This document shows, one piece after another, positions 13,597 to 64,000 of a stretch of 64,000 nucleotides of DNA. The stretch lies in NCBI GenBank assembly GCA_030698625.1, contig JAUYMS010000017.1, forward strand, positions 12,962 to 76,961. The letters run 5' to 3'. The DNA comes from Candidatus Omnitrophota bacterium. GTDB taxonomy: Bacteria > Omnitrophota > Omnitrophia > Omnitrophales > Aquincolibacteriaceae. A program made the translations under genes and the position numbers. Under the pieces are notes generated by a model. That model was given only the letters and a program-made list of their open reading frames with translations. It made no database searches and was not told the DNA's origin. Position 1 is the first letter of the stretch. Every line of letters begins with the position of its first letter.

Positions 13597-13626
13597 AGTA
13601 GGGGCACCGCGCGCTGTGCCCCTACT
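13597..13626. terminator. GC-rich 11-bp inverted repeat (AGTAGGGGCAC-N8-GTGCCCCTACT); possible terminator for the minus-strand M24 peptidase gene
   Basis: Perfect 11-bp arms with an 8-nt loop in the convergent intergenic region. Only a weak U-tract on the minus strand. Confidence 0.3.
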
Positions 13627-13759
13627 TTCAGGTCCACGTGGAACTGGGCACGTGAACCTCTGGGATACTTTTATTTCCGCGACCTAATTTTAGTATAGCA
13701 CACACTTTTTTTTGTGCAAAAAATTTCACGAAAAAAATGAAAATAATTTCGACTATTAT

Positions 13760-23980: not shown

Positions 23981-26900
23981 CGCTCGGAACTACGAGCGTC
24001 GTTGGTTGCGACAGAGATGATGCTCTCCGATATTCTGCCTGCGGGTGAGGTCATCGACCGCGTCATTATCGTTGCGGACAATAGCGGCACTCTTACCGAA
24101 CACCGCAAAAAACCCCTGGAGGGAGAGATGCTCAATGCGCTGCGTGCATTTCTGGGCGAGGCAGGCAATGCGCTGCTAGTTAATTCCGGCGATCCGTTCG
24201 CGATGATCACGACCGTGTCTCAGGAGCCTCTTCTTACCTCACTCGACGCGGAATCGGCCTCCCGCATGCGCCTAATTACCGATGGGGGGAAGACAAAACT
24301 CTCAGTAGGCGCGGGCGGTACCATCGAAAACAAAGTAACGGACCCCGATTGGAGCCGCGACGTACAGATCGCGTACACTCGTGCGCTGATTGAAAGTTTT
24401 TATGATGCGGTTAAGAAAAGACACGGACCGCTCAAAGACATGATCGGTGACATAGCGGACAGTACACTGGAGGATTTCAGGGCAGAGTTGCTTGGAAAAC
24501 TTCGGGATGAGGACGAGCTGGGCCGTTGGGGTATACCGTCCAGCGGGGAGCAGGTTTACGAATTCTCCATTGTTACCGATGCCTTACGTGAAAAGATCGG
24601 CGACGTATTTGTTTATGAAGCCGGCTCCAAGGTAACACTCGAGATGGAAAGCGCCCGAGACGCTTATTCTCTGGCGCTCATCCAGGATATTGAAGCGGGT
24701 TTTAGGGCTAGGCACGTCACCGGTGATGGGAGCTTGTACGTTGCGTCGGGAGATTGGTTCGTTGACATTACAGCGACGACGAAGGCTCTAGCCGTTAAGA
24801 AGACATTGGAAGACATCTTCTCAGAAATAGGGCCGGAAGAAAATGTGGTGATATTTATCATAGGCGACGGCGGCAACGATCTCGATACGCTGAATCTGGA
24901 CCTCTCAGGCCGAGCGCACACGGCAGTCATCCCTGTTTTTCTACAGCATGATGAAATTTACGGCGAAGCCTTGCCGGCGCATGCATGGGTCTCGCGGGAG
25001 ACGAAAATGGATGGCGGTCTTGAGGTGGTCCGTTATGCCTTAGGCCTTGTCGGTAAGAAGGTATCCGAGACAGCCGCATTGCCGCTGCTGAAATGGCAGC
25101 GCTCGGAACCGCGCGCTGATGAAGCCACAGAGGCGATTGATCTAAAAGATAAAACCGTATTGCTGCTTCCGGGAGGCGGCTCCCTTGTTGAGAAGATGGG
25201 CAAAGTCCTCTACGAGGAAGACGAGACTTACCGCAAGGTCATGGACGATGCCGCCAAGATCCTGGGGTATAACCTGGCCGAAAAGATTTTTACGCTTTCC
25301 GAAAAAGAGCTCGAGAACCCGATCTATGATGAACCCGCCATTGTATTGACGCTGTATGCGCTTTATGCGTCGGTTGAAGCAGCACTCGGTTATCCGCCAG
25401 AGGAAGGCGCCATTTACGGTCTCTCACGCGGTGCGATTACGGCCGCGATGATTGCCGGCTCACTTTCATTTGAAGATGGGGTGCGTCTTGCACAGCGGTA
25501 CGGCGAGGCTTTGAGCAAGACGCCTGCGGGTGCCATGATTCAGGTCATGGGGTTGCCCGGTGAAACCGTCGAAGGCATTGCCGCGGATCTCGACCTTGAT
25601 ATCGGTGTAGATCTTGGGGAAACACCGGCCATGGGGCACGTCCTGACGATCTCCGGACCGGCTGAGGTCATTAAGGAGGCGGCCCGCCGCGTTGAAGCAG
25701 CGAAAACGGTTGAACACCCGCATGTTCAGGTTGTCCAACTCGCCAATGGGGGTGTGGCCAGTCACAGCCGTGTCATTCAAGAGGCTGTGGATGATATCGA
25801 AAACTTCATTAAGACGCTCGAGGTGCGGAAGCCCTATGTGCCGCTCGTCAGCAATATTGACGGCAGTTTCCTTACGACTGCCGCGCAAGTTGAAAACGAG
25901 CTCTCCCAACACCTGGCTAACCGTATCCGCTTTCCGGCAGTACAAGAAACACTCAAAGCCGCCGGTGCCAACCGGTTTATGGAACTCGGGACCCGCCGCA
26001 AGGGTGTGCTGTCACGATTCCTCTATAAGACTGACCCGCGGCCGGAATACGTGGACGCACCGGCCGCAGGCGATGCCACCAACTGGGAACGCTTCGTCGC
26101 GAAATTCAAGACACCGGCGATGCCCGAAAGGCTTGTCACAAAGCTGCGCAGCGTCAACCAAGAAGGTGCGGACAATCTCAAAGTATCAGATGAAAACGAG
26201 GAATACCGCCGGCACTGGATCCGTACGAACCAGCTGATACGTCAGGGGCTTGAGGAAGCAGGCGACGGCGGCACGGTCTTATTGTTCGGGCTTGGGAATG
26301 GTAATGAATTCGCAGAACGTTACAAGCGAGAAGATCCGGACTTTTTAACATTGGCGGATCTTGCGCGCCGCGTCGACCGTATTGTTGTCTTTGAGGCCGA
26401 TCCCGAATCCGCACAGCGAACCATTGCCTCGATTGGGGATCCCGCCCTCGAAGCCAAATTCACACTTGAACTCGGAGACGTTACGCGCTTAGGGGCCGCG
26501 TTTGCGCGAAAGGCCGGAAAAGTCATTCAGACATCCTCGCGCGATGATGTGATTGAAGACCTGACCGAGATGATTTCTCAGATTAGGATTCCGGTTATGG
26601 ACTACAGCGAGTACGAAGCCTCGCTGGTGCTTGCACCGACTGTCCTCTCACAGATATTTCTCCATACGCGCAGGGCTCTCTATGAGATGCTCGACGAACA
26701 ATTCGGTGATTTTGGAGGCGTTAACCTTTCGGGTCCCGAAGACGAAAAGCTGCCGCTCGCTGTTGCCATGTCCATGCTGGAGGGAGACATTCACCTCGCC
26801 TTTCTCCGTTCCCTGCGGAGGGGTGTCACCGACGACGGGCGAGCCGTCATTTCGTGGACGAAAGACCGGGTTCAGGGTGTTACGTCAGAAGACGGAGTGT

Positions 26901-48510: not shown

Positions 48511-50253
48511 GTGCAGAAGGACTATAGTTATTTCCAGAGAGTGGTTGCGCTCGTCACGGCGCTTGTCTTCTTTACGACAAGCGTGGTCGAGTGGAGCTAT
48601 GCCTCTGCGGCCCCTACTCCCGAGACCCATCTTCAATTCATTTCCGAGCTCGGCATCCCTGCCGATATTGCGACTGTCCGCGATAGCTTCGGTGACTTCT
48701 CCGAAAAGGGGGATCATGTCTTCGTCATCGAAGACGCGCATACCAACTATGATGCCCAGACCAATACCAAAGCCCTTTTAGAATACCTGCAGACGAAACT
48801 CAATATTCACCACGCCTATGTTGAGGGCGCAGCAGCACCGCTTGCACCTGAGCGCATCCGCTTTTACGAAGACGAGGCCACCAATGTGCGGCTCGCCGGG
48901 GAATTGGCAAAAAAAGGCGAAGTCACGGGCATTGAACTTTTTCTGCTTGAGCATGGAAATCATTTCCAGGCTAACGGTGTTGAAGACCTCGGCATGTACG
49001 CCGAAAACCTGGCACTTTACCGCCGTGTCCTTGGGGCAAAGGCCGAATCCGTAGAGCTTTTGAAAATCCTGCGATCGCAAACGGAGCGCATCATCAGCCG
49101 TCTTTTTGGCGCCCGGCTGCGCGAGATCGTCAGGCAGTGGATGGCCTTTCGTGAGCAGCGCATGGATCTCGACCAGTGGATACCCGAGCTCGAACGCGCG
49201 GCGCGGGATTTAGTGCATGTTGATTTTGAAGATCCTATGGCACAGCTCAAGTGGCCGCAGCTGGTCCGGCTCTATCGGCTGAAGCAATTGGAGCAGGATA
49301 TTGACACGGAGAAAATGGAGCAGGAACTCATCCGCGTCGAGGTCTTGATGAAAGCCGCCGGTCAGGAAGGGCTTGCGCAGGAATTTAGACAGCTGCTGAC
49401 CGTCGAGGGCGAACCGGAGTTACGCTTACGGCGTGCCATGGAAGATCTTTACCGGCGCATGCAACCCCTGGGATTTTCTTTCAACGCCTACCCCGCGCTC
49501 CGGAATTTTACCGCGGTCACTATTTTCCGCCGAGAGATGAACGCCCTCGAGATGATGACGGAACTGGAACGGCTCGTCGATACTCTCATGGAAACACTTG
49601 CCGTAACGGATGCTGAAAAGGAATTCCTGCCGTTCATCAAACGTCTTTACCTTCTCGAGAACGCCCTCACACTGACGCTTACGCGTGAGCAGTGGGATCA
49701 GCTGGGTGACGAAGTCCGTCCCGAGGCCCTGCTCGACGAATTGTCTCGGCACAGCAGAAACCTGGCCATCGAGGGACTTGATGAAGAATCCTTGAACAAA
49801 CGGTATGCACGCGTCTTTAATCTGACGGAGTCGGTCAAACGTTTCTATGAGACGGCGCGCGCGCGTGAAAGAGTTCTGGTTAAAAACACCCTTGCCGGGA
49901 TGAAAAGCGAGGGGATTAACAACGCAGTCATGATTGCCGGGGGGTTTCACACCGACGGCATTGCCGCGCTTCTTCGCGAGGCCGGAGTGTCGCACCTCGT
50001 CCTCAGCCCGAATATTCGCAATATCAAGGATGATGAGCAGGACTACTACTGCATGATGACGGGGCGCTGTGATACGGCGGTGCCCGTGCTGCATACCGGA
50101 TTAAATAGTGCGGCGATTCATCGCGAATCGGCCGGCCTGCGGGCTTACCGCTATCGACTTAGGCGCATCGTGGAGACCATAGTGGGATTAGGAATCGGCT
50201 CGCTTGAAGACGACCGGGAACGCGTTTTGCGCTCTTTCGGACTCCTGGCCGAC
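48511..50253 (+). other. Shared N-terminal module (copy 3)
   Basis: VFVIEDAHT (48714-48743), GIELFLLEH, WPQLVRLYRL (about 49250), IAGGFHTDGI (about 49927-49965). Ends at RSELR 50254-50268. Confidence 0.6.
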
Positions 50254-53200
50254 CGTTCGGAACTGCGGGATCAACCCGTACCTACCGATGCCGTTGAAGA
50301 CCACCTTATTAAACCTGTCCTGAATCGCCTGCAGGCCTCGCATCCGGATGTGGCCGCGAACCTAAAATTGAATATTACTTTTGAAGGAGAAGCGAATATT
50401 TTTTGGGCAAAAAACATGACGAAGCCGGTTGCGATTTACAGTGAGGTCCTCGATATTGGCCCGAGGACCGCCTCGCTCGCCATTGATAGCCGCCTGAGGA
50501 GTGCTTTTATCGAGGCGAGCAACAGCGGAAATCCTCTCTTTGCAGCTGCAGCTGAGGATGCCCTGCTACTGCTCGTGTTGAGAGAAGCGATCGCCTTAAA
50601 CAGTCCCCACGTATCGGATACCCTCAACTTGCCTGTGGCGATCGCTTTCACTTCCTTTCTCGAACAAAGTATGAGCTTTAAAGAATTGAGCAGCCGGCTG
50701 GCTTTAGAACATGTGTCTGATTGGGAAGATTATTTCAAGCAAGTGATAGGAATTCTGGATGCGGCGGCCCCGGAGTTTCGTCTTGCGACTTTACATCGAT
50801 TGTGGATGGAGCAGGCAGCCGGACATCAGACACTGGGAGACATAGACGAGATCATTAACTTCGTCAGTAAAGAAGGCGGTGTCGACATGGGAAGCGATGT
50901 CGTCACGATGACGGTCTCAGAAGGCCTGGCAAGCGCTTCTGCGAACAGAAGGGCCGTGCTCGAATCGCGTAAAAGAATTCTGCTCAGAGAACTCGCGGCC
51001 ATGCAACAGGGGCCTGCGCGGTTCCGAGGAGTCGGTTCTCTGGTTCCGTGGGACCTTCCGGCCGAGGATGGGTATAACCTGGCCGGGGAACCCCAGGGCC
51101 TGTTTTCTCAGGACGGAAAGTATGTCGCCCTCGGTCTGCGCTATGAGCAAGGAGACTCGGGGCTTTCCGGCGTTAGCGATGGTGATCTGGTCACCGAAGG
51201 GGCGAGCAACGGCATCATGAACCAAGTGGTGCTTTACGGCGTTTTGCATGATGCACAAAGCCATATCGTAGACGATGTGCGGGAGTATCGAACGATTCCG
51301 GCGGAAGCACTAACGCGCTTTGCGGAGATCACCGGTCTTGTTATGTCATCTGACAATCAACTCTTGGTCGTCTCCGGTCCTGCGCGCGACGGGGGTAAGA
51401 CTCTCGTTTCCGTTTTTAATATCAGCGGAAAATTGCAACTCAAAGACGGTCAGGCGGTTGATGGTGAGGTCTACGATGAACTCAGAACTTTGGAATTCGA
51501 TGAGACGCCTGATTTTGTCGAGATCGCCGCCGATAACTATGCTCTCTTTGTCGGCCTCGGTAAAGAGCTCAGACGTTATGAATTTATCATGGACGAAGCC
51601 GAGATCAGCGGTTTGAAGGCACCGGTTATCGGTAAGACGGCAACCTATGAGGTTAAGGCGGCGGCGGAGATCCCCGAGGCCGTTCCGCTTCTCGCGCGGC
51701 TAAAATTCGTCGAGGGGAAGAGCCCGGAGCTTTCACTGCGGCACGACGGGAATGTGGCCGAAGCCATGATTCAAATGCTGAGTAGCATTCCGATTGCTGC
51801 GCTTTCGGACGGCAGTGCCGTGCTTGCTGTTTCTGCGAGCAAGGCGCTCATGATGGGACTTCAAGCAGAAACGGTCGGCTCCTTGGCTGTCGCGGAGGCG
51901 ATTCAGGCCCGGGTCCGGGTCATCGAAACCGAGATCGCGGCAATTGATGCGCCTCAGCGCTCGGAGCTCAGGACGGCGGATTTTGATCCCGAAAAGCACC
52001 CTGCGACGATCGAAATCACCTCCTATTACACCTCCCGCGATCATTTGCGTATGGCCTTGGCCATCGGAAATGCCGAGCTCTACACCCAAGCGCTCGGCGA
52101 GTCTATTCACTTTGCCAAAAAGGCTATGGATTTAATCGATCACCGCGGAGAAGTGCAAACCATTGTCAGTTACCTCAGGACCAAACAGGATGTGCCCTTT
52201 CAGCGCGACACAATCGGCGATACCTTTGAGATCACACGAGTGCAGGAAGACAAATTTTCCCGTGAGGAGCAGGAGATGATCGAAGTCGAAACCCAGAAAT
52301 TTCTCAAGGCCCTTGGGTTCCAAGGCAGTGTCGCCGAGGATCTGGCGCGCGAAATCATGCTTGTGAGTTATCCTTTGAGCCTCGCGAACATGATGCCCCC
52401 TACCATTGAGGGTGCGGAGTTTCAGCCGGAAATGACGCGTGAAATCGGCAAGAGTTTGCATCAATTTGTGTTTGCGGAATCCCTAACTTTGGGCGGCGCC
52501 GTCGTCGTTAACCCCTCCCTTGCCAAAGATATCACCATTCAGATTCTGCAAAAGAACGATCCGATTGCTTTCAAAGGGTCCTTTCTTCATGAGGTCGTCC
52601 ACTTTCTGGCGCTTAAGAATGCGCTTCCCTTCGATGTGAGCCGCGAGCTTGTGACGCAGGCAATCACGACCGCCGTTTTTCTTACGGAGGCGGGCAGCCT
52701 GGAGCCCATTCTTTCGCAGATCCCCGAAGACATGCAGGAGTGGCGAATTCTCTATGAAACCGTCGTGAGTTGGGGCGAGACCGCTGCCGAACAGGGGCAT
52801 CGCATCAAGCGGCCGGAAGAACTCGATTCGATGGTGCGTGATTTTATTGAAACCCGCGTCCCGGAGATCATGAATATGCCTTATGCGAAATACAATGACT
52901 TTGTCGATCGTTTGAGCGGTGTCTATCTGGGCGCTTTTGCCGCCAAGACGAAGGCCCTGGATCCTAAAACGAATCTTTATAAATTCATCGTCGACTACGG
53001 CATTCGCCACCTGCCGCGCGTGAGGAACAATGCGTTTACCCGCAGCCTGACGCAGCGCGACCACGCCTTTATTCAAGAAGTCATGAAAACGCTTTCGGCG
53101 GTTGCACAGGTTACGATTCCCGACGGCCGCATTACTTTCAAAGAGCAGTCGATGAAGGAAACGCAGGAAAGAGGGCTCGGCCGTATGGTCTATGATGCTG

Positions 53201-56200
53201 ATAAGCATGTCATCTACTACTTGCCGTGGGATATCGTGGAGTTCGGCAAAGACGCCTCCGTCGGACATCTGCTCCAGGAAATCTTTCGCTATCAGCATAC
53301 CTACGACGGGGAAATAGAAGAGGCCTATGACCATACCGCATTTCGTCTGCTCTTTAGCGTTGCCGAAAGCGCCCGTGTGGTGGCGCTCGGTTTGGCCGAG
53401 TTTCCGGAGCGCCTGATCGACATCGAGGCCTTTTATGAGCGGAAGCTCAGGATTTTGGACTTGGAAATAGAAAAGGACCGTATGGCCGAACAGCCGAAAT
53501 TTGTGCAATACGTCGAGGGGCTCTTTTATGCCCTGGCAAAATCCGGCGATCCGGAGAACCCCGAATGGGATCCGAGAATTGTGACGGACATTGTAAAGGA
53601 AGCTCTGAATGATACTTTTGCGGTGGTCGCCGAAGCCATGGCCGCCGAAGGGCCGACGGCGGGCCGTTATTTTTACGAAGTCATACGCGACCAGGTGTGG
53701 CCCGTCGTTGAAAGACTTCTCGAGCTGGACAAAAAGGAAGCGCTCGAGCAGGAACTCGAAAATCAGACCATGAGTCAGATGATCGAGAACGGAGATTTTG
53801 AAATCGTCGAAGCCCCGCCTTCGGAAGGGGAGCCGAGCCCGATGCCGTTACCCCCGGGCGCAAAACTGAAGATCAACATATCCCCGGGGTCCACAGCCGG
53901 TGCGATCGATATGAAAGATCTCAGTCCCGAGGCTCGAGCCGCACTTGAAGAGGCGATGAAGAAGTTTATGGAAAATATGGATGACGAGCAGAAGAAAAAA
54001 TTCGAGGAAGCGGCCCGCCAAGCCTTGGAAAATTCTCTGGAAGATGCCGTCGACGGCATGGCGCCCATTACTTCCGGCATGGACGGAGAATTGCCGGGGC
54101 AGGGCAAATTCAAGCCCGGCCGGGGATCTCCTCAAGTGCCCGGGCGCGGCGATGTGTCGACGGACGCCCTCGGCGAGCTCTATCAGGATCTCGAAGAGGC
54201 GGAGGATCAAGCCAATAGAATCAGTCAGCAAGCGGATGCGATCGAAGCCGAGGCGGCCAGAGTTATCCAAGAGGCGCTTGATGCGGCACGGCAGGCTGCG
54301 GAGATCGATCGAGAAGGGGAAGGCGATAAAGCAAAAGCCCTCGAGATGGAAAAGGCCCTCGCCGGCTTGGCGCAACAGCTTAAGAACCTGCGTGCTGAAG
54401 CGAACCGGTTTCACGATATGGCCGACGATGTGGAAGCAAAAATCGATGACGTTCGCGACGACCCGGATCTCGATCAGGATCAAGTCCAAGAAATACGTGA
54501 CCGCGTGGATGACCTCCAAGGAAAGGCCCTTGAGATTGACGATGATGCGGCCGGTGCCGACAAGGACGGTCAGCAGGCCGTCAAGAGCGGCGACGAGATG
54601 AAGGACATGATGGAACGCGATCCCGACCGAACCAACTTTATTAAAGGACGCGCCAAGAGAGTTCAAGAGACACTGGAGGACGCGAAAGGGCGCCTCGATG
54701 AGGTGCAGAAAGATGCTCAGGAAGCCGCAGCGCAATCCGGCGATCTGAAAGGCGAAACCCGCGCGATGCGCCAGGGAGTTGTTCAGAATGCCCCCATGGA
54801 AGTGGAGGAAAGTCCGGTGCCGGATATATCGGTGGATGACGGCCTAGAAGATGCCCCGGGTGAAGGGGGTGTCGGCGCAGGCGGCGGAGATCCGGGGGGA
54901 CACATCAAAATCAAGATGCCGAACAGGAGCCGGCCTGGTAAGAAAAGGAGACGTAAGCAAGCGCAAAAGAAGGGCCTACAACCCGAAAAGGTCAGAAAAC
55001 ACACGGTCGATCCGCGCGTCGCGGAATCACTCCGGGAACTTTTGCAGGACGAGGCCTTTCAGGCGCCTGAAAAGCCTTTTGACATTGACGACTTTTATAC
55101 CGCGACAGAGCCCGGAGATGTGAGCCCGGACCAACGCCACATCTATGACATGATTCGCAATCTCTCACGCTCACATGAAGCCACCATTAGGGACGCTATT
55201 CTCAGTGTCCTCGACGAGCTTGAGAGCACCGAAGATATCCCCCGTCAGAAAAAGGGGCGCCTCGACGGGCGCCGTCTTGCGGTGGTCGACAGCGGTATCA
55301 AGGACATCAATAAACGTAAAGTGACACCGGATGCTCCCGTAGTCCGCGTTTCAATTCTGATCGACGTGTCGGGGAGTATGTTTTCGGATGTCAATAACCT
55401 GCAGGTCATCCCGCCCGTTAGTGACGAGTATCTCGAGCAGGCCCTAAAGACAAAAAACAGAATCACGAATGCCGTTCGCACCGCACTCCTTTTCATGGAG
55501 GCATTTCGCAACGAAGAGCGCGTCGAGCTCGAGATCGGGCTCTTTGCGGCCAGGCAAAAAATCATCCTTCGTTTCGGCGAGGAGATCACGGATGCGAAGG
55601 CTTATGAAGTGATACGCACTATTTTAAATCACGGTTTGGGCGGTGATAATACCGATTTGGCAGGTCTTCAGATGATGGTTAACAGCCAGCGTGAACGGGA
55701 GGCCGAAATGGGGCCGGCCTCTAAGATCGTGGTCATTATCGCCGACGGCGGAATTAATTATACGGACGCCCTAGGCTTGCAGACCACGATGCAAAACAAT
55801 ACGGATATGGCATTTCTACCGCGCGGCATCGGCCCGGCATCGGCAAATGTTAAAGGGGCATACGCCCCTTTCGGTAAAGAAGTTGATGATGTGACAAAAC
55901 TGGCCAAAGGGCTTGGCGACGATGTGCTGAACGAGATTGAAAGGCTTCGGCCGACGGGCGGTGACGACCGGTCGGAATTAAGGGTGATGCATCCGGTGAT
56001 TGTGCGGCCCGAGAGGTTCGAGACAGACAATTTTAAAGTTGTGCGGGAAGGTAAAGACGAATTTCTGGTCGTCAAGGGAGGGCGATACCCGACTTTTAAG
56101 GCAAAAGTGGACAAGGGCGGCAGAAATGTGCCGGATGAGGATTTGTATGAGACTGAGACCAACGTCGCCGACGTCGTACAGATTATCAAGCATGTACGAA

Positions 56201-59200
56201 ACCAGGACCTGGATCGCAGTCCGCTTTATATCGAAGGTGAAGCAGGAACGGCGAAGAACAAGAAGGTCTACTATGCCGCAAAACTATTACGCAAAGCCAC
56301 GCGATACATGGCGATGCACGATGACATTCACGATGACGACCTGACGGAAAGACGCGGCGTGAATGAAAAGGAAGAAGGTAAGACCGACTGGATCCCTTCG
56401 CCGTTAGTCGAGGCGATGATGAACGGAGATTGGATTATTCTCGATGAGGTCAACAAGGCGAAGACAACGGTTCTTCAGAAACTGAACCAGATCATTCAAT
56501 CCCGCCGCGTGGTACTCCACGACGGAACAGTGGTGACGGCCAAGCCGGGATTTGCGGTCATCATGATGGCCAATCCGCCGCCGAGTTCCGGGGATGCAAA
56601 GGTTTACAGCGTACAAAAGATCTCAGCCGAGATCATGGACCGCCTCCGTTACATGAAGATCGACTACCTGCCGCGCCACGAAGAACTGCAGTTATTGTTC
56701 CATATCCTCATGAAGAAGCGCGGCTTAAAGACCGCAAGTTCGATCCCCAACGTAGACAAAGAAATGGTGCGGAAATTAGTGGACGCGGCGCGTATCATTC
56801 GCGAGAGATATGAGGATGTCGATCCGGCAACCAACTTGAGCCGCGGTCGGGGAAAAAAAGTGGCCCGTCCGTTTTCGACACGCGCATTGGTCAATATCGT
56901 CGAGCATATTGCGGCATATCCCGAAGAAAGAGACCGGATTCGTTCGGTCATCAAACGCTTTTATTCGTATGAGTGGGAAAAGGACGATCAGGTCAGAAAG
57001 GTCGAAGAGGCCTTGAACAACAAGCTGCCGCGTTTTGACGAGCCGTATGTGTTTTCCGACGGCGATTTGATGGGGCCGAAGTATTCGACAAACGCCGAGG
57101 GAAAGCGCGTGTTGGAATTTGCAGGCGTCCAGGTGGAACTCGGGGAACATGCGCCGCTCGGCATGGACGATGTCCCCCTTGAGATGCGCCTGACATGGAC
57201 TTCGAAAAACCTGGAGTATCTGCGCCACATGATGATGGACCTAAGGGCGGGCAATCACATGCTGTTTATCGGTGAGGCCGGCACGGGAAAAGACACGATC
57301 GCAGAATACGTGACTTACTTGACGCATGGCCCGGTGGTGGAAACCTTCGGGGTGACGAAGAATGCAATGGCCGAGGACTTTATCGCCTATGTCGGTTTGG
57401 GCGAGGGTGAGAAGGTCGCCAAAGACGGGTTGGTCCTTGCCGTGGGTAAAAATGAAACAGGTCTCGTGCCGTCGTATGTGGTGCGCGCCATGTTGGCCGG
57501 ACGGCCGGTGATCTTGAGTGAAATCAACAAAGGGAAACCGGAGGTATTCGCGGCACTCAATAATATTTTGGAATACGGGTGGATCGATCTGGCCAACGGC
57601 CGTCGTGTCCATGCCGAGCCCGGTTTTGTGATTATCGGTACGATGAATCCTCCGAAACGGCAGTACATGGGGAACTACGGGCTCTCGGGAGAATTTATCG
57701 ACCGGTTCTCGACCTATAAATTTGATTATCTGGAGAGGGATCAGGAAGTCGATATCCTGGAAGATTTTAATCAGTATATCAGGACGCTTCCGGACCGGAA
57801 TTTCTACCGGTTAAAACGGGAGTTCATCGAGAAAATTACCGATATGGTGCGGATCCTGCGCAGGAGATACGACGACAACGAACTGCCGCACCCGGTGTCG
57901 ATGCGTGCCCTCAAACGGCTGATCGTGACGTTTGCCGAGTATCCTGAAATCTATAAGGCCGAGAAGAAAGATACCGAAAAACAGACGCCGCTCGAGAAGG
58001 CGATCCTCAGCTCCATTTTCTTCCACGACCCGGTTCATCAGGAAGAGGTGTTGAAGGCGATGAGGGCTGCCAATGTGAAGGGGCTGCGCGACATTGTGGA
58101 GTTTGATGTCTCGACCGGTTCGCAGGTCCTGGATGCCGCTTTTCAGCAATTGCGCTCGAATCTCGGAAGCATCGACTCCATGATCCGCGCCCTGGCCGAG
58201 TTTGACCGGTTGATTGAAGACAATAAGGATAAAATCCCTCCGGCGATTTTCAAGAAGGCACAGCCGGCGTACCGCCATTTGGTGGCTAATGAATTTCCGC
58301 CGAAGTGGGGCGAAAGCCAGCTAGCCGACGCGGTGGTGGTGCATGTGCTCCAGCGCCTTGGCGGTGAATTAGCACTACCGGTACTGCCGCCAATTAACCG
58401 CGAAGTGCTGCGTACGGGGCCACTTGATCTCGCGGCGCATCCGGAATTCGGGGTGAGGTTTATCGGCGACATGGTGCAGGGTATTGCCGAAGTTACAGGT
58501 CAGAAGCAGGACGCCAGGTTCCTGAAGATCGCAGGTAAGGTGTTTTTGGGGTTGAGGAAGGGTTTTTCGGCCAAACAGATCGTGCGGGCCTTCGAACGTG
58601 ACGGCCTGAAACTTTACGGGACCGAGCGTACCGGGGATAGCAAGGGTGGGGAATACTTCGCGGCATTCTTCGGTTTGGCCAAGGATGTGCAGGATGCGGT
58701 GCGCAGCAATACGGCGATTACCGAGGTGGCCAATTACGAGGCACGCATTAAAGTGCTCGGGTTATCTCAGGACTGGGTGGATGTATTCGCCAAGCTGAGC
58801 CGTCCGGCGGTGAACCCGGTTTTGGCGAAGACCTGGCGCGATCAATTGATTACGGCCGTTGATCTCTCCAAACGCGACCGAATAGTCCGTCTTGCGATTC
58901 TCCTGACGCTTCAGATTCTCTTTAAGAATAGCGACCGCGTCTTTATGGATCAAGTGGTCCGTGAACGTATCAAGATTCTCTCGCGGTCCGAATTGCGGTC
59001 TGACGAAGACTCACAGCCCCAACAGCATCTTTCGATTTGGCCCGTTCAAGGGAAGCCGGCTCCGTCATCGGGCTTCGTTCCGGTAGACGAAATTGACGTC
59101 AAGCTGGTCCTATCGGCTGCCCTGAAGGAACTTCGCACTCAACATTTTGCTCTTTATCAAAACCTCTGGACGGAGATCAATGCCGAATGGGGTCCGAATT

Positions 59201-62200
59201 TTCTGTGGGTCGAAGGGCTGCCGGCGCCGGCCATGGTGTACGCACATGAACTGGACGGTGGCGATCGCGCGACGGTTTTTGCGCTTGATGTCGGCCTCAG
59301 AGGCTATCTTGAGAAGGCTTACTCGGAGAAAAACGAAAAGCGCAAAGAAGCGGCGACGGAATTCCTGCTTATGCTCTTAATCGGGGAAGCGGCTTCGCTT
59401 GAGGGACGTCCTATGAAGGAAACCCGCACGCCGGATTTAAAAAATGATTTACTCGCCGCGCTTACTGTTGCTAAGCACTTCTACAGTGTTCCGTCTCAGG
59501 CGCCAGTGCAGCAATCCGCTCTTTTTGCCGTGGTCAAAGAAGGAAACCGGTTTGTCTTTAAGCGAAGCGACGGACCCGCCATTGATTTGTCGCGGGGGCT
59601 CGAGGCGGTAAACGGGGTCCAGTTTACGGTCAACGAAGGCGGAGAGCCGCGGGTCCATTTTCACGGATCAGGCCAGGGCGTTTGGGGTCTCTATGACCAG
59701 TTTGGGAGAAAAGTCGGCCCCTTTGAACAGATCGTGCCGTGGCCTGTTGAATATCCGGTTTCTATGCGTGATGGGAAGGGCGGTATCCAAACCTATTTCT
59801 GGGTATTGCAGGATGGGCAATGGATTTTGTACAACCAGGACGGCGTCATCGGCGACGGCCTAAACGACTTAAAAAATACCTTTGCTCACGTTGAAAGGCC
59901 GAGACTCTATGAGAACGAGAACGGCGATCCGTATATCCTTTTTATAGGGCAACCGGCGGGGAGTAACTGGGGCCTCTATTCGGTAACGCAATCCGAAGGT
60001 CAGGGACCTGTGGTGACTCTTTTTCAAGGTGGTTTTGACAGCCGGCGCCATAGGGACTTTGATGAGAAGGAATCCGGTGTCGGTTATCCACAGCCACTTC
60101 GCCTGCCGGACGGCAGACGCAGTCTCGTCGTGCAGAACAATCTCCAACTGATCTATCGAGGGGCCGCTCTCGGTGAAGAGGCGATCTTTCACAATCGAAA
60201 AACCGTTAAAGCCGGCTTTGAAGAAACCGGGGAACCCCACCCTGCTGCGGATTCAAAAGGCAGGATTTACACCTTCTTCCGGGCTAAAGAAAAGAACCCC
60301 GCGGAACCCAATGAGAAAGGGTTATGGCGTATTTACAATAATGCGGTCCCTGTGTCGGCGCCGCTGGCTGAGATCGGCGAGCCGGAGCCCTTTTTTGACA
60401 AACAGGAAGGAGCGCATGCACTCTATAAAGGAAGGGCTGCCGGAGACGATGCGCCCTGGCACCTTTATCAAGACGGCATGCCCCTAACCAAAGCTTATGA
60501 AGAAATCGGCGATGTACGGGTCGTTGTGACTCCGGATAAAGAGGTGGCGATTATTTTTGCCGCGAGGACTTCGGAATCGTGGGGTGTCTATCAGCAGAGT
60601 CCCGGCGCGGAGCCCGGTACGGAGGTCCTTCATGAAGACGGTTTTAGCAATATCCGCCACTTGACCGTTGCCGTTGATGAGCGGGGCACCCGGCGTATCT
60701 ACTTCACCTCATTGAATGATACGACCTGGGCCGCTCATGTTGACTTTCGCGCTGTGTGGCATGGTCCCGAGGAACCCTCCGCGGCGCGGGTGATGCACAC
60801 CGATGACGGAAATGTGGATTTCTATTTTGAAGCGGCATATTCGGGGCACAGGGCCCTATTTAACGGAGACGGAGAGATCGCAAAATCATTCGGCACGCTG
60901 CTGGATGCCGTCGTGGCCTTTGAAGCCGTGAACTTTGGACGCGAGGAAGGTGCCGTCCAAAAACTGAAACCCGAAGAGCGGGGCAAAAGAAGGCGGGATT
61001 TGCTGGCGGCTCTTCTTAAAGAATTAGGCGAACGGCCCGCGGCAGCGCATATGACCCAGTTACTCCAGGTGTTACGCCGCTTCAGCGGCGAGTCTGTAAG
61101 CGGTGAGGCCGGCATCACGGCGCTCACCGACCATCTTTTCACTCAGCCGGCATATCAGAAAGCATACCAGCGTACCGGGCAGGATGTCATGGCGACTATT
61201 CAAGAGGTTGTCGCTGAGAACCGGAAACGCTCTGAACTCCGATCAGACGGCCCGAAGGAGCCGAAGATTGCGCCTGTCGACGAAATTAATATCGAAATGC
61301 TGCGAGGGGCGCTGGATGTATTGAAGGCCAAGAACCCTGATGTCTATGCCGATATCGACCGTGCCGTCTCTTCGCAGTACGGTAAAAGTTACTTATGGGT
61401 GCAGAACATTCCGGGCATTGCGGCCCTCTATACGGACACCCTGGATGACGGCGAAGTGTATTCTTCGCTCGGGATCAACGTCGCGTGGAGGGGACTCATC
61501 GAAGCGGTGTACGCGTCGTTGAAAGTAGACGCAATGAAGGACTTGGATTATTTCCTCTATCTCGTGCTGCTGCGCGAAGGCCGCAAGCTACGCGGCGGGG
61601 ATTTCAACGAGACGATTACACCGAATCCCGCTCTGGAATTGAGGGCGTTCCTCAGCGCCGCAGACGGGTACTTCACATTGGGTTCCGGAGCGACGGAAAG
61701 GCATATCGTCATGGCTCAGGTCCATGCGGAAAACGGAAAACACTTTATTCGTACGAGCGACGGTCAAACCCTTCAAGTTGAATACAACCTGCAATTGGAC
61801 GACATCAAAAATCTTATGATGGCGATCGATGATGTCGGGAATCCGCATCTTTTTTACACGGGCCAGCGTCCCGACGGAAAAATGAGCCTTTATGACAGCA
61901 ATGAGGCATTAGCCGAGGCATATGATGAGATCAAATTTGCGGCCGGCCCCATCGACCGAACGGGATTCGTACAGGCCTTTTATTTCGGCAAGAGGGACGG
62001 GAAGTGGGCCCTGTTCCGGAACAAAGAACATTTGATCTCGGGGCTTGAGGGTGTCGGGGCTGCACGCATTGCCCTCGATAAACGAGGGGATACGCATCTC
62101 TTTTTTACCGCATTGAAGGGCGGCGTTTGGCGGCTCTATCGTGATGGAGAGCTCTACTTCAAGGATGCCGAAGAGGAGCTCGCCGATACCGATGAGCCGG

Positions 62201-64000
62201 ACATGTCAACGCCGGAGGCGCGGGGGCGCGCGCTGCGGGCCGCCGTTGAAGAAACCGCCGCAGGACGGGTGATAAGAGATGCCCTGGAGAATATGGGCAT
62301 CACCTCACCTAACCCGGGAGAATCCATGCTCGATGAATTTTCGGGCGGCCCTATCGATGATGACCTCGCCTTCCAACTCTTAGAGGACTTAGAGGGCGGC
62401 GCCGCTGATGAGCATATCCTTATCCCATTCGAAGAATTAGACGCGGAGCCCGATTTCGAAGAGGTGCCCGCAGTTACAGGGCCCGAATTGGCCCTTGCGC
62501 AGAGAATGGAAAAACAGATCCTTGCGATTCTGAACATCCCCAGCCCGACTCGGGCGGCCGTTCTACAGGACCTAGTTGAAAAAATCGCAACGCTGCTGAA
62601 CCCGCGCATTATTGCGCGAGTTCCGGAATCGATTCTCATTAACATCTCGGGGCGCTTACAGCGGGCACAGGAAACACCCGGTTTTAAGAAATATAGCCGC
62701 GCGCTTCAGGGCATGGTGGACAAAGTGAAAGCGAGGCTGGAAGAAGTCAAAGCGGCAAAACGGACGGCTGGCGAAAGGAGACCCTCCGCCGGGGCGGTCC
62801 TTGCCGGCGCAAGCGCGGCCCTAACCCGGGGAATCGGTTTGAAGCCGAATCGGCGACACATTTTTGCGGTCGAGACGATGCAGGACGGAGACGACCGCAC
62901 CCAGGTTTTTATTGCTGCCAGGGTGCAGAATGGGAAGGTCAGCCTCTTTCGGGAAACGACGCGCCTCGTTGCGGAAGTCGATAAGGTGCAAGATATGATA
63001 ACCGTCGCCGACGGTGAAGGAAATCCGCACCTCATTTCCGTCGTAAAGCGCGGAGTGAACTCGGTGCTTTATCTGGATTCTGATGAGGTCAAGGGAGACT
63101 TTGAAGAGGTGGGGCATGTCGCACCTCTGGTGGATAAACGAGGCCGAGTGCAGGTTTACTTTACGGCGAAGAAAAACGGGACGTGGGAGCTTTACCGAAA
63201 TGCAGTCAAACTGATGGCGAGCGCCGATGATATTCAAAAACCGGTGGTCCTGCTTGACGGAAACGGCAATGAACATGTCGTTGTGCCGCGCGCCTCCAGG
63301 ACGACTTCCGTCGAGATGATCGATTTTCTCATCCAAACACGGCCGAAAACTGACGAGCCGGCCGAAGAAGAACTCTATAACGAAAAACAGGTCCTCGCGA
63401 GCGGCTTTAAGAGATTCGGAAAACCGGCCGTGGGGCTGGATACGAACGGCAGGATCCGCATTGTCTTTACCGGGACCAAAGAAAAGGGGAGCGGGTCCGA
63501 TCGCACCGAAGTCTGGAGCCTCTTTGACGGTGAAAACGAGATCCTCAAAGGGAGTGCGTTCATCGGTGACCCGGTCGCTGCGAATGATAAAACCGGGAAA
63601 TTTATTTATTATTATGTCGCCAAAGAGACGGGTTTTATAATGAGAAGCGAAACGTATGCCCTCTATAAGGACGAGGGGTACGGCCCCGTGAAGACGGCGG
63701 CGGGATTTTCAGACATGCAACCGCCCGTGCTCATTCCGGCGGCGAGGGGAGGAGTCGAAGGTTATTTTACCGGCCGCAAGAAGAGCGCCTTCGGTATCTA
63801 TGATGAAAGTGGGGCCCTCGCCAGGGGTTTCGGAGAAGGGCTCGTCGAGGTTGCCGGTATGGGTGCGGATGTCGTGACGCGGGATGACACGGATACCCAG
63901 AAAACGGCCGCAGACACGCTCCTGCTGCGGCAGCGCGTGCAATCGTTGATCGGACGTCTAAGACCCAAAGAGATGCACGCAGGCTGGAAGACATTTTTTG
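48511..64000 (+). CDS. Giant multidomain protein 3, 5' partial (more than 5163 aa; continues beyond the window end)
   Basis: Open in one frame from the GTG at 48511 to position 64000; the frame was verified at six widely spaced points. The N-terminus VQKDYSYFQRVVALVTALVFFTTSVVEWSYASAAP...HVFVIEDAHT aligns with genes 1 and 2. The alternative TTG at 48415 is less likely. Confidence 0.85.
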   Translation, partial: MQKDYSYFQRVVALVTALVFFTTSVVEWSYASAAPTPETHLQFISELGIPADIATVRDSFGDFSEKGDHVFVIEDAHTNYDAQTNTKALLEYLQTKLNIHHAYVEGAAAPLAPERIRFYEDEATNVRLAGELAKKGEVTGIELFLLEHGNHFQANGVEDLGMYAENLALYRRVLGAKAESVELLKILRSQTERIISRLFGARLREIVRQWMAFREQRMDLDQWIPELERAARDLVHVDFEDPMAQLKWPQLVRLYRLKQLEQDIDTEKMEQELIRVEVLMKAAGQEGLAQEFRQLLTVEGEPELRLRRAMEDLYRRMQPLGFSFNAYPALRNFTAVTIFRREMNALEMMTELERLVDTLMETLAVTDAEKEFLPFIKRLYLLENALTLTLTREQWDQLGDEVRPEALLDELSRHSRNLAIEGLDEESLNKRYARVFNLTESVKRFYETARARERVLVKNTLAGMKSEGINNAVMIAGGFHTDGIAALLREAGVSHLVLSPNIRNIKDDEQDYYCMMTGRCDTAVPVLHTGLNSAAIHRESAGLRAYRYRLRRIVETIVGLGIGSLEDDRERVLRSFGLLADRSELRDQPVPTDAVEDHLIKPVLNRLQASHPDVAANLKLNITFEGEANIFWAKNMTKPVAIYSEVLDIGPRTASLAIDSRLRSAFIEASNSGNPLFAAAAEDALLLLVLREAIALNSPHVSDTLNLPVAIAFTSFLEQSMSFKELSSRLALEHVSDWEDYFKQVIGILDAAAPEFRLATLHRLWMEQAAGHQTLGDIDEIINFVSKEGGVDMGSDVVTMTVSEGLASASANRRAVLESRKRILLRELAAMQQGPARFRGVGSLVPWDLPAEDGYNLAGEPQGLFSQDGKYVALGLRYEQGDSGLSGVSDGDLVTEGASNGIMNQVVLYGVLHDAQSHIVDDVREYRTIPAEALTRFAEITGLVMSSDNQLLVVSGPARDGGKTLVSVFNISGKLQLKDGQAVDGEVYDELRTLEFDETPDFVEIAADNYALFVGLGKELRRYEFIMDEAEISGLKAPVIGKTATYEVKAAAEIPEAVPLLARLKFVEGKSPELSLRHDGNVAEAMIQMLSSIPIAALSDGSAVLAVSASKALMMGLQAETVGSLAVAEAIQARVRVIETEIAAIDAPQRSELRTADFDPEKHPATIEITSYYTSRDHLRMALAIGNAELYTQALGESIHFAKKAMDLIDHRGEVQTIVSYLRTKQDVPFQRDTIGDTFEITRVQEDKFSREEQEMIEVETQKFLKALGFQGSVAEDLAREIMLVSYPLSLANMMPPTIEGAEFQPEMTREIGKSLHQFVFAESLTLGGAVVVNPSLAKDITIQILQKNDPIAFKGSFLHEVVHFLALKNALPFDVSRELVTQAITTAVFLTEAGSLEPILSQIPEDMQEWRILYETVVSWGETAAEQGHRIKRPEELDSMVRDFIETRVPEIMNMPYAKYNDFVDRLSGVYLGAFAAKTKALDPKTNLYKFIVDYGIRHLPRVRNNAFTRSLTQRDHAFIQEVMKTLSAVAQVTIPDGRITFKEQSMKETQERGLGRMVYDADKHVIYYLPWDIVEFGKDASVGHLLQEIFRYQHTYDGEIEEAYDHTAFRLLFSVAESARVVALGLAEFPERLIDIEAFYERKLRILDLEIEKDRMAEQPKFVQYVEGLFYALAKSGDPENPEWDPRIVTDIVKEALNDTFAVVAEAMAAEGPTAGRYFYEVIRDQVWPVVERLLELDKKEALEQELENQTMSQMIENGDFEIVEAPPSEGEPSPMPLPPGAKLKINISPGSTAGAIDMKDLSPEARAALEEAMKKFMENMDDEQKKKFEEAARQALENSLEDAVDGMAPITSGMDGELPGQGKFKPGRGSPQVPGRGDVSTDALGELYQDLEEAEDQANRISQQADAIEAEAARVIQEALDAARQAAEIDREGEGDKAKALEMEKALAGLAQQLKNLRAEANRFHDMADDVEAKIDDVRDDPDLDQDQVQEIRDRVDDLQGKALEIDDDAAGADKDGQQAVKSGDEMKDMMERDPDRTNFIKGRAKRVQETLEDAKGRLDEVQKDAQEAAAQSGDLKGETRAMRQGVVQNAPMEVEESPVPDISVDDGLEDAPGEGGVGAGGGDPGGHIKIKMPNRSRPGKKRRRKQAQKKGLQPEKVRKHTVDPRVAESLRELLQDEAFQAPEKPFDIDDFYTATEPGDVSPDQRHIYDMIRNLSRSHEATIRDAILSVLDELESTEDIPRQKKGRLDGRRLAVVDSGIKDINKRKVTPDAPVVRVSILIDVSGSMFSDVNNLQVIPPVSDEYLEQALKTKNRITNAVRTALLFMEAFRNEERVELEIGLFAARQKIILRFGEEITDAKAYEVIRTILNHGLGGDNTDLAGLQMMVNSQREREAEMGPASKIVVIIADGGINYTDALGLQTTMQNNTDMAFLPRGIGPASANVKGAYAPFGKEVDDVTKLAKGLGDDVLNEIERLRPTGGDDRSELRVMHPVIVRPERFETDNFKVVREGKDEFLVVKGGRYPTFKAKVDKGGRNVPDEDLYETETNVADVVQIIKHVRNQDLDRSPLYIEGEAGTAKNKKVYYAAKLLRKATRYMAMHDDIHDDDLTERRGVNEKEEGKTDWIPSPLVEAMMNGDWIILDEVNKAKTTVLQKLNQIIQSRRVVLHDGTVVTAKPGFAVIMMANPPPSSGDAKVYSVQKISAEIMDRLRYMKIDYLPRHEELQLLFHILMKKRGLKTASSIPNVDKEMVRKLVDAARIIRERYEDVDPATNLSRGRGKKVARPFSTRALVNIVEHIAAYPEERDRIRSVIKRFYSYEWEKDDQVRKVEEALNNKLPRFDEPYVFSDGDLMGPKYSTNAEGKRVLEFAGVQVELGEHAPLGMDDVPLEMRLTWTSKNLEYLRHMMMDLRAGNHMLFIGEAGTGKDTIAEYVTYLTHGPVVETFGVTKNAMAEDFIAYVGLGEGEKVAKDGLVLAVGKNETGLVPSYVVRAMLAGRPVILSEINKGKPEVFAALNNILEYGWIDLANGRRVHAEPGFVIIGTMNPPKRQYMGNYGLSGEFIDRFSTYKFDYLERDQEVDILEDFNQYIRTLPDRNFYRLKREFIEKITDMVRILRRRYDDNELPHPVSMRALKRLIVTFAEYPEIYKAEKKDTEKQTPLEKAILSSIFFHDPVHQEEVLKAMRAANVKGLRDIVEFDVSTGSQVLDAAFQQLRSNLGSIDSMIRALAEFDRLIEDNKDKIPPAIFKKAQPAYRHLVANEFPPKWGESQLADAVVVHVLQRLGGELALPVLPPINREVLRTGPLDLAAHPEFGVRFIGDMVQGIAEVTGQKQDARFLKIAGKVFLGLRKGFSAKQIVRAFERDGLKLYGTERTGDSKGGEYFAAFFGLAKDVQDAVRSNTAITEVANYEARIKVLGLSQDWVDVFAKLSRPAVNPVLAKTWRDQLITAVDLSKRDRIVRLAILLTLQILFKNSDRVFMDQVVRERIKILSRSELRSDEDSQPQQHLSIWPVQGKPAPSSGFVPVDEIDVKLVLSAALKELRTQHFALYQNLWTEINAEWGPNFLWVEGLPAPAMVYAHELDGGDRATVFALDVGLRGYLEKAYSEKNEKRKEAATEFLLMLLIGEAASLEGRPMKETRTPDLKNDLLAALTVAKHFYSVPSQAPVQQSALFAVVKEGNRFVFKRSDGPAIDLSRGLEAVNGVQFTVNEGGEPRVHFHGSGQGVWGLYDQFGRKVGPFEQIVPWPVEYPVSMRDGKGGIQTYFWVLQDGQWILYNQDGVIGDGLNDLKNTFAHVERPRLYENENGDPYILFIGQPAGSNWGLYSVTQSEGQGPVVTLFQGGFDSRRHRDFDEKESGVGYPQPLRLPDGRRSLVVQNNLQLIYRGAALGEEAIFHNRKTVKAGFEETGEPHPAADSKGRIYTFFRAKEKNPAEPNEKGLWRIYNNAVPVSAPLAEIGEPEPFFDKQEGAHALYKGRAAGDDAPWHLYQDGMPLTKAYEEIGDVRVVVTPDKEVAIIFAARTSESWGVYQQSPGAEPGTEVLHEDGFSNIRHLTVAVDERGTRRIYFTSLNDTTWAAHVDFRAVWHGPEEPSAARVMHTDDGNVDFYFEAAYSGHRALFNGDGEIAKSFGTLLDAVVAFEAVNFGREEGAVQKLKPEERGKRRRDLLAALLKELGERPAAAHMTQLLQVLRRFSGESVSGEAGITALTDHLFTQPAYQKAYQRTGQDVMATIQEVVAENRKRSELRSDGPKEPKIAPVDEINIEMLRGALDVLKAKNPDVYADIDRAVSSQYGKSYLWVQNIPGIAALYTDTLDDGEVYSSLGINVAWRGLIEAVYASLKVDAMKDLDYFLYLVLLREGRKLRGGDFNETITPNPALELRAFLSAADGYFTLGSGATERHIVMAQVHAENGKHFIRTSDGQTLQVEYNLQLDDIKNLMMAIDDVGNPHLFYTGQRPDGKMSLYDSNEALAEAYDEIKFAAGPIDRTGFVQAFYFGKRDGKWALFRNKEHLISGLEGVGAARIALDKRGDTHLFFTALKGGVWRLYRDGELYFKDAEEELADTDEPDMSTPEARGRALRAAVEETAAGRVIRDALENMGITSPNPGESMLDEFSGGPIDDDLAFQLLEDLEGGAADEHILIPFEELDAEPDFEEVPAVTGPELALAQRMEKQILAILNIPSPTRAAVLQDLVEKIATLLNPRIIARVPESILINISGRLQRAQETPGFKKYSRALQGMVDKVKARLEEVKAAKRTAGERRPSAGAVLAGASAALTRGIGLKPNRRHIFAVETMQDGDDRTQVFIAARVQNGKVSLFRETTRLVAEVDKVQDMITVADGEGNPHLISVVKRGVNSVLYLDSDEVKGDFEEVGHVAPLVDKRGRVQVYFTAKKNGTWELYRNAVKLMASADDIQKPVVLLDGNGNEHVVVPRASRTTSVEMIDFLIQTRPKTDEPAEEELYNEKQVLASGFKRFGKPAVGLDTNGRIRIVFTGTKEKGSGSDRTEVWSLFDGENEILKGSAFIGDPVAANDKTGKFIYYYVAKETGFIMRSETYALYKDEGYGPVKTAAGFSDMQPPVLIPAARGGVEGYFTGRKKSAFGIYDESGALARGFGEGLVEVAGMGADVVTRDDTDTQKTAADTLLLRQRVQSLIGRLRPKEMHAGWKTFF
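53690..54800 (+). other. Long acidic coiled-coil region followed by a Gly-rich and highly basic stretch (KKRRRKQAQKKG, about 54930-54965)
   Basis: Heptad-like, E/D/A/K-rich sequence with low complexity (…DAIEAEAARVIQEALDAARQAAEIDREGEGDKAKALEMEKALAGLAQQLKNLRAEANRFHDMADDVEAKIDD…). Confidence 0.5.
55320..55900 (+). other. von Willebrand factor A (vWA) domain with a MIDAS motif
   Basis: VRVSILIDVSGSMFSD (the DxSGS MIDAS at 55363-55377) and a later IVVIIADGG strand. Confidence 0.6.
56180..56640 (+). other. AAA_5 / MoxR-like ATPase domain 1
   Basis: Walker A IEGEAGTAKN (about 56236-56262); Walker B-like WIILDEVNKA (about 56436-56460); VVLHDGTVVTAKPGFAVIMMANPP. Confidence 0.6.
57200..57700 (+). 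other. AAA_5 / MoxR-like ATPase domain 2
   Basis: Walker A FIGEAGTGKDT (about 57271-57300); Walker B VILSEINKG (about 57508-57534); HAEPGFVIIGTMNPP. Confidence 0.65.
59600..64000 (+). repeat. Array of at least 15 degenerate repeats of about 45-50 aa, each ending in a G-x-W-x-L-Y(R/N/Q) motif (putative beta-propeller blades); interrupted by RSELR at 61228 and an acidic linker at about 62180-62480
   Basis: Examples: DKRGDTHLFFTALKGGVWRLYRDGELYF; DKRGRVQVYFTAKKNGTWELYRNAVKL; DTNGRIRIVFTGTKEKGSGSDRTEVWSLFDGENE; QGVWGLYDQFGRK; SNWGLYSVTQSEG; ESWGVYQQSPGAE. Confidence 0.55.

Follow-up and report, generated by a model that had tools for sequence, protein, structure and literature searches.

A conserved cassette of an HExxH region, a MIDAS-type vWA domain and a tandem AAA_5 pair in giant open reading frames of Omnitrophota and neighbouring phyla

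What might a vWA (von Willebrand factor A) domain and MoxR-like ATPase units do side by side inside a giant bacterial protein? This question is raised by the last of three very long plus-strand open reading frames (ORFs) in a 64,000-nucleotide stretch of a Candidatus Omnitrophota metagenome-assembled genome (MAG) (contig JAUYMS010000017.1, positions 12,962 to 76,961), referred to here as the window. Giant ORF 3 (48511..64000; GTG start at 48511 in a frame open from 48406, with 330 further codons beyond the window end) corresponds to MDP3919639.1 (P0005), a protein of 5,493 amino acids that is encoded on an 80-kb contig and annotated as 'AAA family ATPase'. Residue numbers of P0005 equal those of the frame opened at 48406 minus 35, and all features of the window described below lie on the plus strand. 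An earlier note on this DNA had proposed a vWA domain with a MIDAS motif and two complete AAA_5/MoxR-like ATPase domains, fused in cis and resembling a miniature midasin within a giant surface protein. The motifs on which it relied, DVSGSM (55363), GEAGTAKN (56236), GEAGTGKD (57271), RSELR (55969) and KKRRRKQAQKK (54940), are all present. Our analysis shows that they belong to one conserved cassette found within giant multi-module ORFs in Omnitrophota and neighbouring candidate phyla; it runs from an HExxH region through an acidic linker, a basic patch, a vWA domain and a separator to an AAA_5-AAA_5 pair.

The vWA/MIDAS domain was placed at 55228..55968 using sub-threshold Pfam matches, orthologue profiles and motifs. 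While both generic Pfam models remain under their thresholds (VWA_2, 21.3 bits with a cut-off of 27; VWA, 19.4 bits with a cut-off of 23.8), a profile of nine orthologous vWA domains retrieved solved structures from the PDB, namely PTMP1 (E=1.4e-7), the integrin alpha-M I-domain (approximately 5e-4) and the MIDAS domain of midasin (6qt8, 0.036). Likewise, the local vWA hidden Markov model matched the C-terminal MIDAS domains of VWA8 (2.5e-16) and of a Methanosalsum protein with six AAA units (P0009, 3.5e-30), and also the C-termini of about 40 midasin-sized proteins (approximately 4,000-5,500 amino acids). Motif comparison identified a pre-MIDAS element like that of midasin and VWA8 (55249-55329), the MIDAS motif DVSGSM (55363-55380), the region of the MIDAS threonine, GGDNTD (55639-55656), and IIADGG (55735-55752). 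DxSGSM and the xDG aspartate within IIADGG are invariant in all nine orthologues. As judged from these motifs and profiles, the domain is a diverged MIDAS-type vWA despite the sub-threshold scores of the generic models.

Pfam AAA_5 (PF07728) matched two stretches of giant ORF 3 with 136.1 bits (cut-off 22, E=1e-39), and the top NCBIfam match of the region, below its cut-off, was GvpN, a MoxR-class ATPase. Based on Pfam, motifs and the alignment of orthologues, unit 1 with its lid occupies 56032..57045 and unit 2 with its lid 57208..58086; the module therefore extends past the end at about 57700 given in the earlier note. A helical tail (58087..58998) completes the ATPase segment. Unit 1 comprises the Walker A motif GEAGTAKN (56236-56259), the Walker B motif ILDEVN (56431-56460), sensor 1 MANP (56563-56583), the arginine finger DRL (56623-56652) and sensor 2 STR (56866-56895), and the corresponding elements of unit 2 are GEAGTGKD (57271-57294), ILSEIN (57505-57534), TMNP (57634-57654), DRF (57685-57714) and SMR (57889-57918). 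The Walker lysine, the catalytic glutamate, the sensor-1 asparagine, the arginine finger and the sensor-2 arginine are kept in both units among approximately 18 orthologues of 25-50% identity, which argues for working nucleotide sites in both. Foldseek matches of an AlphaFold model of the cassette were dynein and NorQ, which confirm the AAA class only. Since the entire protein contains exactly two AAA units, and the vWA domain lies N-terminal to them, the idea of a miniature six-unit midasin had to be given up.

How widely this arrangement is shared became clear only from an exhaustive search. A word-indexed homology search had returned four distant matches (two with a profile) and missed the true orthologues, whereas the exhaustive protein search gave 2,483 matches, the closest of which were not midasins but prokaryotic giant proteins carrying the whole block. 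The protein P0006 (5,634 amino acids) is collinear with residues 1163-3681 of P0005 at 35% identity, for P0010 from Ratteibacteria and for P0013 the collinearity spans residues 1603-3184, and P0011 and P0017 span the vWA domain and both ATPase units. Genome contigs scanned with the single protein yielded no match; a profile scan of contigs, with one genome per species, yielded 34 loci. The order vWA-AAA-AAA was found in giant ORFs at at least 12 of these 34 (L002-L008, L011-L013, L019, L020, L023), and the MAGs with the cassette in a giant ORF are labelled Omnitrophota, Elusimicrobia, Ratteibacteria, Auribacterota or Planctomycetes. When the cassette profile was compared with solved structures, midasin came first (approximately 1e-85, with many units summed), followed by NorQ (3.5e-23), CbbQ (1.9e-15) and CobS (2.4e-11), in agreement with the AAA_5/MoxR-like class proposed earlier; the top named match in the indexed search was VWA8 (E=1e-68). 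The cassette is not described in the studies of Omnitrophota giant proteins by West-Roberts et al. and Seymour et al. In the giant ORF of locus L003 (7,661 amino acids, incomplete at both ends), we observed a second HExxH motif (residue 6392) and a second vWA domain (7127-7400), indicating that the cassette or a part of it can be duplicated within one ORF.

The same parts also occur outside giant ORFs. Five loci contain a two-gene operon: L021 (Bacillota; 9608-14488), L024 (9542-14182) and L025 (UBP9), L026 (9593-14184) and L030 (Vulcanimicrobiota; 9623-14615). Gene 1 encodes a protein of 730-790 amino acids with two AAA_5 units (189 bits with Pfam), midasin-type lids and a canonical GKT P-loop, and gene 2, directly downstream, encodes an HExxH motif, a long low-complexity linker rich in Q, G and S and a vWA domain (56-64 bits) at the extreme C-terminus. 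Residues 1155-2491 (HExxH, linker and terminal vWA) and 2492-3496 (AAA pair and tail) of P0005 match the genes of this operon one-to-one. In the literature searched, no published description of such operons was found. A further architecture, in which several AAA units precede a C-terminal vWA domain in a single chain, was found in Methanosalsum (L016, L017, P0009) and in an Elusimicrobiota MAG (L018). In all non-giant architectures, the vWA domain lies within about five residues of the protein C-terminus. As a separate observation, the proteins of Methanosalsum natronophilum (L016, 9086-19021) and M. zhilinae (P0009, WP_013897510.1) combine six alternating AAA_5 units with a C-terminal MIDAS vWA domain in one chain and thus represent a midasin-like architecture in a methanogen, that is, in an archaeon.

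The relationship between the units in these longer chains is instructive. P0015, a six-unit protein, has odd-numbered units similar to unit 1 of the pair proteins and even-numbered ones similar to unit 2, and in P0009, which also has six units, an alternation of KD and KS is repeated three times over. This alternation marks the heterotypic AAA_5 pair, as far as can be read from the sequences, as the evolutionary building block, and it makes it likely that in two-unit proteins three pairs form one six-domain ring.

Upstream of the vWA domain, three further elements complete the cassette. An HEVVH motif with a glutamate 15 residues after the second histidine is located at 52588..52647; HExxH and this glutamate are invariant in all orthologous cassettes, where they precede the MIDAS motif by approximately 760-930 residues. 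Next comes an acidic, partly coiled-coil linker (53803..54915, frame residues 1800-2170) with 23.5% aspartate and glutamate, a net charge of -41 and weak SMC/Rad50-like matches; it corresponds to the acidic coiled coil of about 370 residues described earlier. The basic patch KKRRRKQAQKK (54940..54972) lies in a stretch of 31 residues with 45% lysine and arginine.

A recurrent feature of the locus is the pentapeptide RSELR. Giant ORF 1 (412-13533, 4,374 codons between stops), giant ORF 2 (21986-48319, 8,777 amino acids) and the part of giant ORF 3 in the window contain 13, 13 and 5 copies, respectively; these 31 copies span 2203-61242, while 0.047 are expected from composition. A sixth copy of ORF 3 lies past the window end, giving a total of 32. 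The copies (for example, those starting at 2203, 23981, 50254, 55969 and 61228) are restricted to the coding frames, their codons are varied, and they delimit segments of 173-1,337 residues. The residue that follows is alanine, serine or threonine in 22 of the 32 copies (p=4e-9 at +1), and then often aspartate or glutamate, resulting in the extended pattern RSELR-[AST]-[DE]. One copy (51958..51972) opens the 1,337-residue segment that ends in the vWA domain, another (55969..55983) is located exactly at the vWA/AAA junction, as the earlier note had seen, and within a low-confidence linker of the model, and a third (58984-58998) terminates the helical tail of the ATPase segment. The vWA domain ends 1-15 residues before the junction copy and thus lies at the C-terminal end of an RSELR-bounded segment. 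In giant ORFs 1 and 2, each Pfam domain (HAD, acyltransferase, receiver (REC) and HD) likewise occupies a segment of its own. A literature search on RSELR matched only the name of the software varSelRF. The motif was also considered as a ligand of the MIDAS, which we judged unlikely as orthologues keep the vWA domain without it.

Among the relatives, the vWA/AAA junction is occupied in two ways. RSE[LVM]R is present at this position in L003, L004, L005, L007 and P0017, and one or two short hydrophobic helices are found instead in L002, L006, L008, L011, L013 and P0006. The same applies to the next site at 58984, where RSELR in giant ORF 3 is replaced by a hydrophobic helix in P0006. Arrays of RSE[LVI]R also exist elsewhere in Omnitrophota loci, with 10 copies in L003, 4 in L005 and 3 in L007. 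As read from the sequences, the junction hairpins of the orthologues are flanked on both outer sides by basic residues, and their short loop is neutral or acidic. Under the positive-inside rule, such a charge pattern argues that both neighbouring domains, the vWA domain and the ATPase, are cytoplasmic, and the assumption of a giant surface protein is accordingly not supported. In addition, we noticed that in frame residues 2215-3040 of giant ORF 1 seven helices of strong hydrophobicity are interspersed with RSELR sites, showing that both kinds of separator coexist within one protein.

Taken together, an HExxH region, a MIDAS-type vWA domain and a heterotypic AAA_5 pair are inherited as a set, and we consider it reasonably probable that the cassette is a diverged remodelling engine of the MoxR/midasin class embedded in giant ORFs. 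In NorQD, insertion of a vWA finger into the AAA pore and stretching of the linker have been described (PMC13036017), and for MoxR-vWA-peptidase systems it was proposed that the vWA protein recruits a client, the MoxR ATPase unfolds it and the peptidase cuts it, near the membrane (Zhang and Aravind, 2012, PMC3495828). By analogy with NorQD, CbbQO and midasin, three tandem AAA_5 pairs would assemble into a six-domain ring, on which the MIDAS domain would dock as it does in NorQ-NorD and midasin. The MIDAS metal ion would hold an acidic residue of the client, and ATP turnover could twist, stretch or pull the long acidic linker and thereby remodel the client. Speculatively, the client might then be presented to the HExxH site and cut there, in line with the MoxR-vWA-peptidase logic (PMC3495828). 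The whole process would be located on the membrane's cytoplasmic face.

Several findings weigh against this reading. Both P-loops depart from the canonical GxxGxGK[ST], ending in AKN and GKD with the lysine kept, and while Walker B of unit 1 follows the hhhhDE rule, unit 2 has SE, with the aspartate replaced and the glutamate kept. ATPase activity is therefore a prediction, and the earlier description of two complete units has to be qualified with respect to both P-loops and to Walker B of unit 2. The same is true for the vWA domain, which was recovered by orthologue profiles and invariant motifs but not by the Pfam models; its MIDAS threonine lies one position away from the usual place (GGDNTD, a shift shared with VWA8), and the orthologue L003 lacks it (GGGNAD). 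The AlphaFold model of the cassette is poor, with a mean predicted local distance difference test (pLDDT) score of 59 and a predicted template modelling score of 0.33. For the HExxH region, there was no Pfam match in nine members and no sequence match in the PDB, its AlphaFold model (pLDDT 65) gave no Foldseek match better than E=0.15, and hhalign with the corresponding region of the two-gene relatives reached a probability of only 2%. Consequently, the region can be called metallopeptidase-like at the motif level only. Moreover, the signal-like hydrophobic helix at the N-terminus of P0005 (residues 11-26, 48541-48588) reads N-in/C-out, so that without cleavage the bulk of the protein would be outside the cell.

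The deviating Walker motifs also lend themselves to another explanation, namely that both AAA units are catalytically inert and form a structural platform for the vWA domain, as GEAGTAKN, GEAGTGKD and the SE of unit 2 might suggest. A Walker A motif ending in N or D is, however, the rule in approximately 18 orthologues and also occurs in one unit of VWA8 (GKN), so that GK[ND] is a family-wide trait and not local decay, and the remaining catalytic residues are kept among these orthologues as described above; we therefore regard inert units as unlikely. Replacement of the Walker B aspartate by serine or threonine is seen only in the nearest relatives and there only in unit 2. We considered whether GKD in Walker A and [ST]E in Walker B compensate for each other and rejected this as a rule, since units combining GKD with DE exist in P0009, L002, L003 and L006. 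The core of a MoxR-class ATPase and a vWA domain is also shared with the vWA-MoxR 'ternary' conflict and defence systems catalogued by Kaur et al. (2020), in which peptidase partners are common (PMC7159879). The MoxR protein of those systems has a single unit and not a tandem, though, and the cassette lies within giant ORFs beside housekeeping genes. With PADLOC, the ATPase segment remained without a match and the vWA segment had a single, coiled-coil match to LmuB, and VMAP, iSTAND or effector domains were not seen, all of which makes a defence system improbable. Least credible to us is a surface coat protein on which the vWA domain serves as an extracellular adhesin and the ATPase domains are unrelated passengers. 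The signal-like helix would fit this, and an adhesin role has been suggested for Omnitrophota giant proteins (PMC10066038). Against it, the vWA domain is of the midasin/VWA8 type and is inherited together with the tandem AAA units, in an unchanging order in different phyla and also as an operon, the basic outer flanks of the orthologue hairpins place both domains in the cytoplasm, and extracellular ATP is not available. All three explanations are less likely than the remodelling engine.

A stronger competitor, although we give it clearly less weight than the intact engine, is a polyprotein. According to this view, the giant ORF would be cut at RSELR before a small residue, releasing two products that would act in trans in the manner of NorD/NorQ or the two-gene relatives: an HExxH...vWA protein of 1,337 residues, whose free C-terminus would directly follow the vWA domain, and a tandem-AAA protein of 1,005 residues. 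This would refine the proposed engine rather than replace it. The excess of RSELR (31 copies in the window), its confinement to coding frames with varied codons, the preference for a small and then an acidic residue after it, the protein-sized segments, the placing of each Pfam domain of ORFs 1 and 2 in a segment of its own and the position of the junction copy in a low-confidence linker are all consistent with processing, as is the recurrence of RSE[LVI]R at the same junction in L003, L005 and L007. The vWA domain is close to a free C-terminus in every non-giant architecture, and NorD requires its free C-terminus to bind NorQ (PMC13036017). Cleavage would furthermore reconcile the signal-like helix with the cytoplasmic ATPase, REC and HD modules. 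On the other hand, no protease was found, orthologues such as P0006 and L002 are wholly devoid of the motif and have hydrophobic segments instead, and RSELR might just as well act as a hinge or serve for binding. Given the separator at the junction and the free C-terminal vWA domain of the non-giant relatives, the two parts may act as separate units, and the cis fusion described in the earlier note, true for the ORF, might not extend to the working proteins. If the idea is extended to all three giant ORFs, the 32 sites would yield about 35 products, and those with the vWA domain and the tandem AAA units would combine in trans into a MoxR-type engine in which the HExxH site might also take part; we put this forward still more tentatively.

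The three giant ORFs have other features in common. In each of them, we observed a hydrophobic helix at the N-terminus followed by WSAP-like residues, and they share a paralogous head of about 500 amino acids with 30% identity (445-2211, 21986-24001 and 48511-50265). IxDAHT..AQ, EG, GVED and GGFHxxG are invariant in this head, which also occurs in P0006 and P0015 and has no match in Pfam or the PDB. A likeness to TIKI/TraB-type enzymes or proteases was considered but found no support in Pfam or the PDB and was dropped. Giant ORF 2 embeds cytoplasmic-type domains, an acyltransferase (residues 1061-1316), a response-regulator receiver (4075-4160) and an HD domain (4291-4462), the latter two being separated by RSELR, and giant ORF 1 (445-13533) embeds a HAD hydrolase (residues 1876-2084). 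Directly after three RSELR sites of ORF 3, there is a short module (L..L...HP..Y, then hydrophobic-W-[AV]-x-N-hydrophobic-P; 50300-50500, 59090-59200 and 61300-61420), and in the last two of these segments it is followed downstream by W-x-L-Y beta-type repeat regions. Between giant ORFs 1 and 2 lie ordinary chromosomal genes, encoding an M24 peptidase, a split transketolase, a gamma-glutamyltranspeptidase, a NUDIX protein and Bax1-I.

The giant genes of Omnitrophota are largely unannotated, and the points at which their products may be cleaved are described as unknown by West-Roberts et al. (bioRxiv 10.1101/2023.11.21.568195). The present locus provides a conserved and recognisable machine inside such genes as well as a precise candidate boundary motif. 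If the RSELR-[AST] sites are true processing sites, they would for the first time define where these proteins are cleaved, and the stand-alone operon relatives could allow an HExxH/MIDAS/tandem AAA_5 machine to be studied biochemically. The partnership of AAA_5 and vWA domains and its cis fusions are already known from midasin, VWA8 and fused MoxR-vWA genes (PMC3495828). What is new is that the order is permuted, that the pair serves as building block, that the GK[N/D] P-loop is family-wide, that an HExxH companion is constant, that the cassette is embedded in giant ORFs and that a separator lies at the junction. For the AAA+ field, this adds the GK[N/D] P-loop and a lineage whose two-, four- and six-unit proteins are built from a heterotypic AAA_5 pair and not from a single unit, while the prokaryotic single-chain proteins with six AAA units and a MIDAS domain bear on the origin of midasin-like architectures.

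Compared with known systems, the cassette resembles midasin (Rea1/MDN1), its top solved relative, in its AAA_5 units, in the pre-MIDAS element and in the acidic region directly upstream of the MIDAS domain. Midasin, however, has six AAA units in one chain, then a linker, a D/E-rich region and a C-terminal MIDAS domain, whereas the cassette has two units C-terminal to its vWA domain, a separator between them and GK[ND] P-loops, and it is bacterial and has no pre-60S ribosome context. The mitochondrial protein VWA8, the top named match, shares the AAA_5 class, the GDNT variant of the MIDAS threonine and one unit with a GKN P-loop, but it is eukaryotic, its vWA domain is C-terminal, and it has neither an HExxH region nor a separator.

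Among the two-component chaperones, NorQ-NorD and CbbQ-CbbO also combine an AAA_5-class ATPase with a partner whose vWA domain is terminal to a long N-terminal domain and linker, and the likely mode of docking and twisting can be taken from them (PMC13036017). They differ in that single-unit homohexamers and separate genes, with the AAA gene first, take the place of a heterotypic tandem pair in one ORF with the vWA domain first; in addition, no metal-enzyme client is evident for the cassette. While NorQD, CbbQO and RavA-ViaA all pair a single-unit ATPase protomer with a separate vWA gene, the operons L021, L024-L026 and L030 share the separate gene but keep tandem units. The operons encoding MoxR, vWA and transglutaminase-like (TGL) peptidases share the proposed recruit-unfold-cut logic, and occasional fusions of MoxR and vWA are noted in the same paper (PMC3495828); the candidate peptidase of the cassette would be an HExxH motif region without a detectable family and not TGL. 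Closest in composition are the two-gene operons (L021, L024/L025, L030), which contain the same three parts but have GKT P-loops, the reversed gene order and a Q/G/S-rich low-complexity linker, and whose two AAA units appear, from their sequences, to have arisen by a separate duplication.

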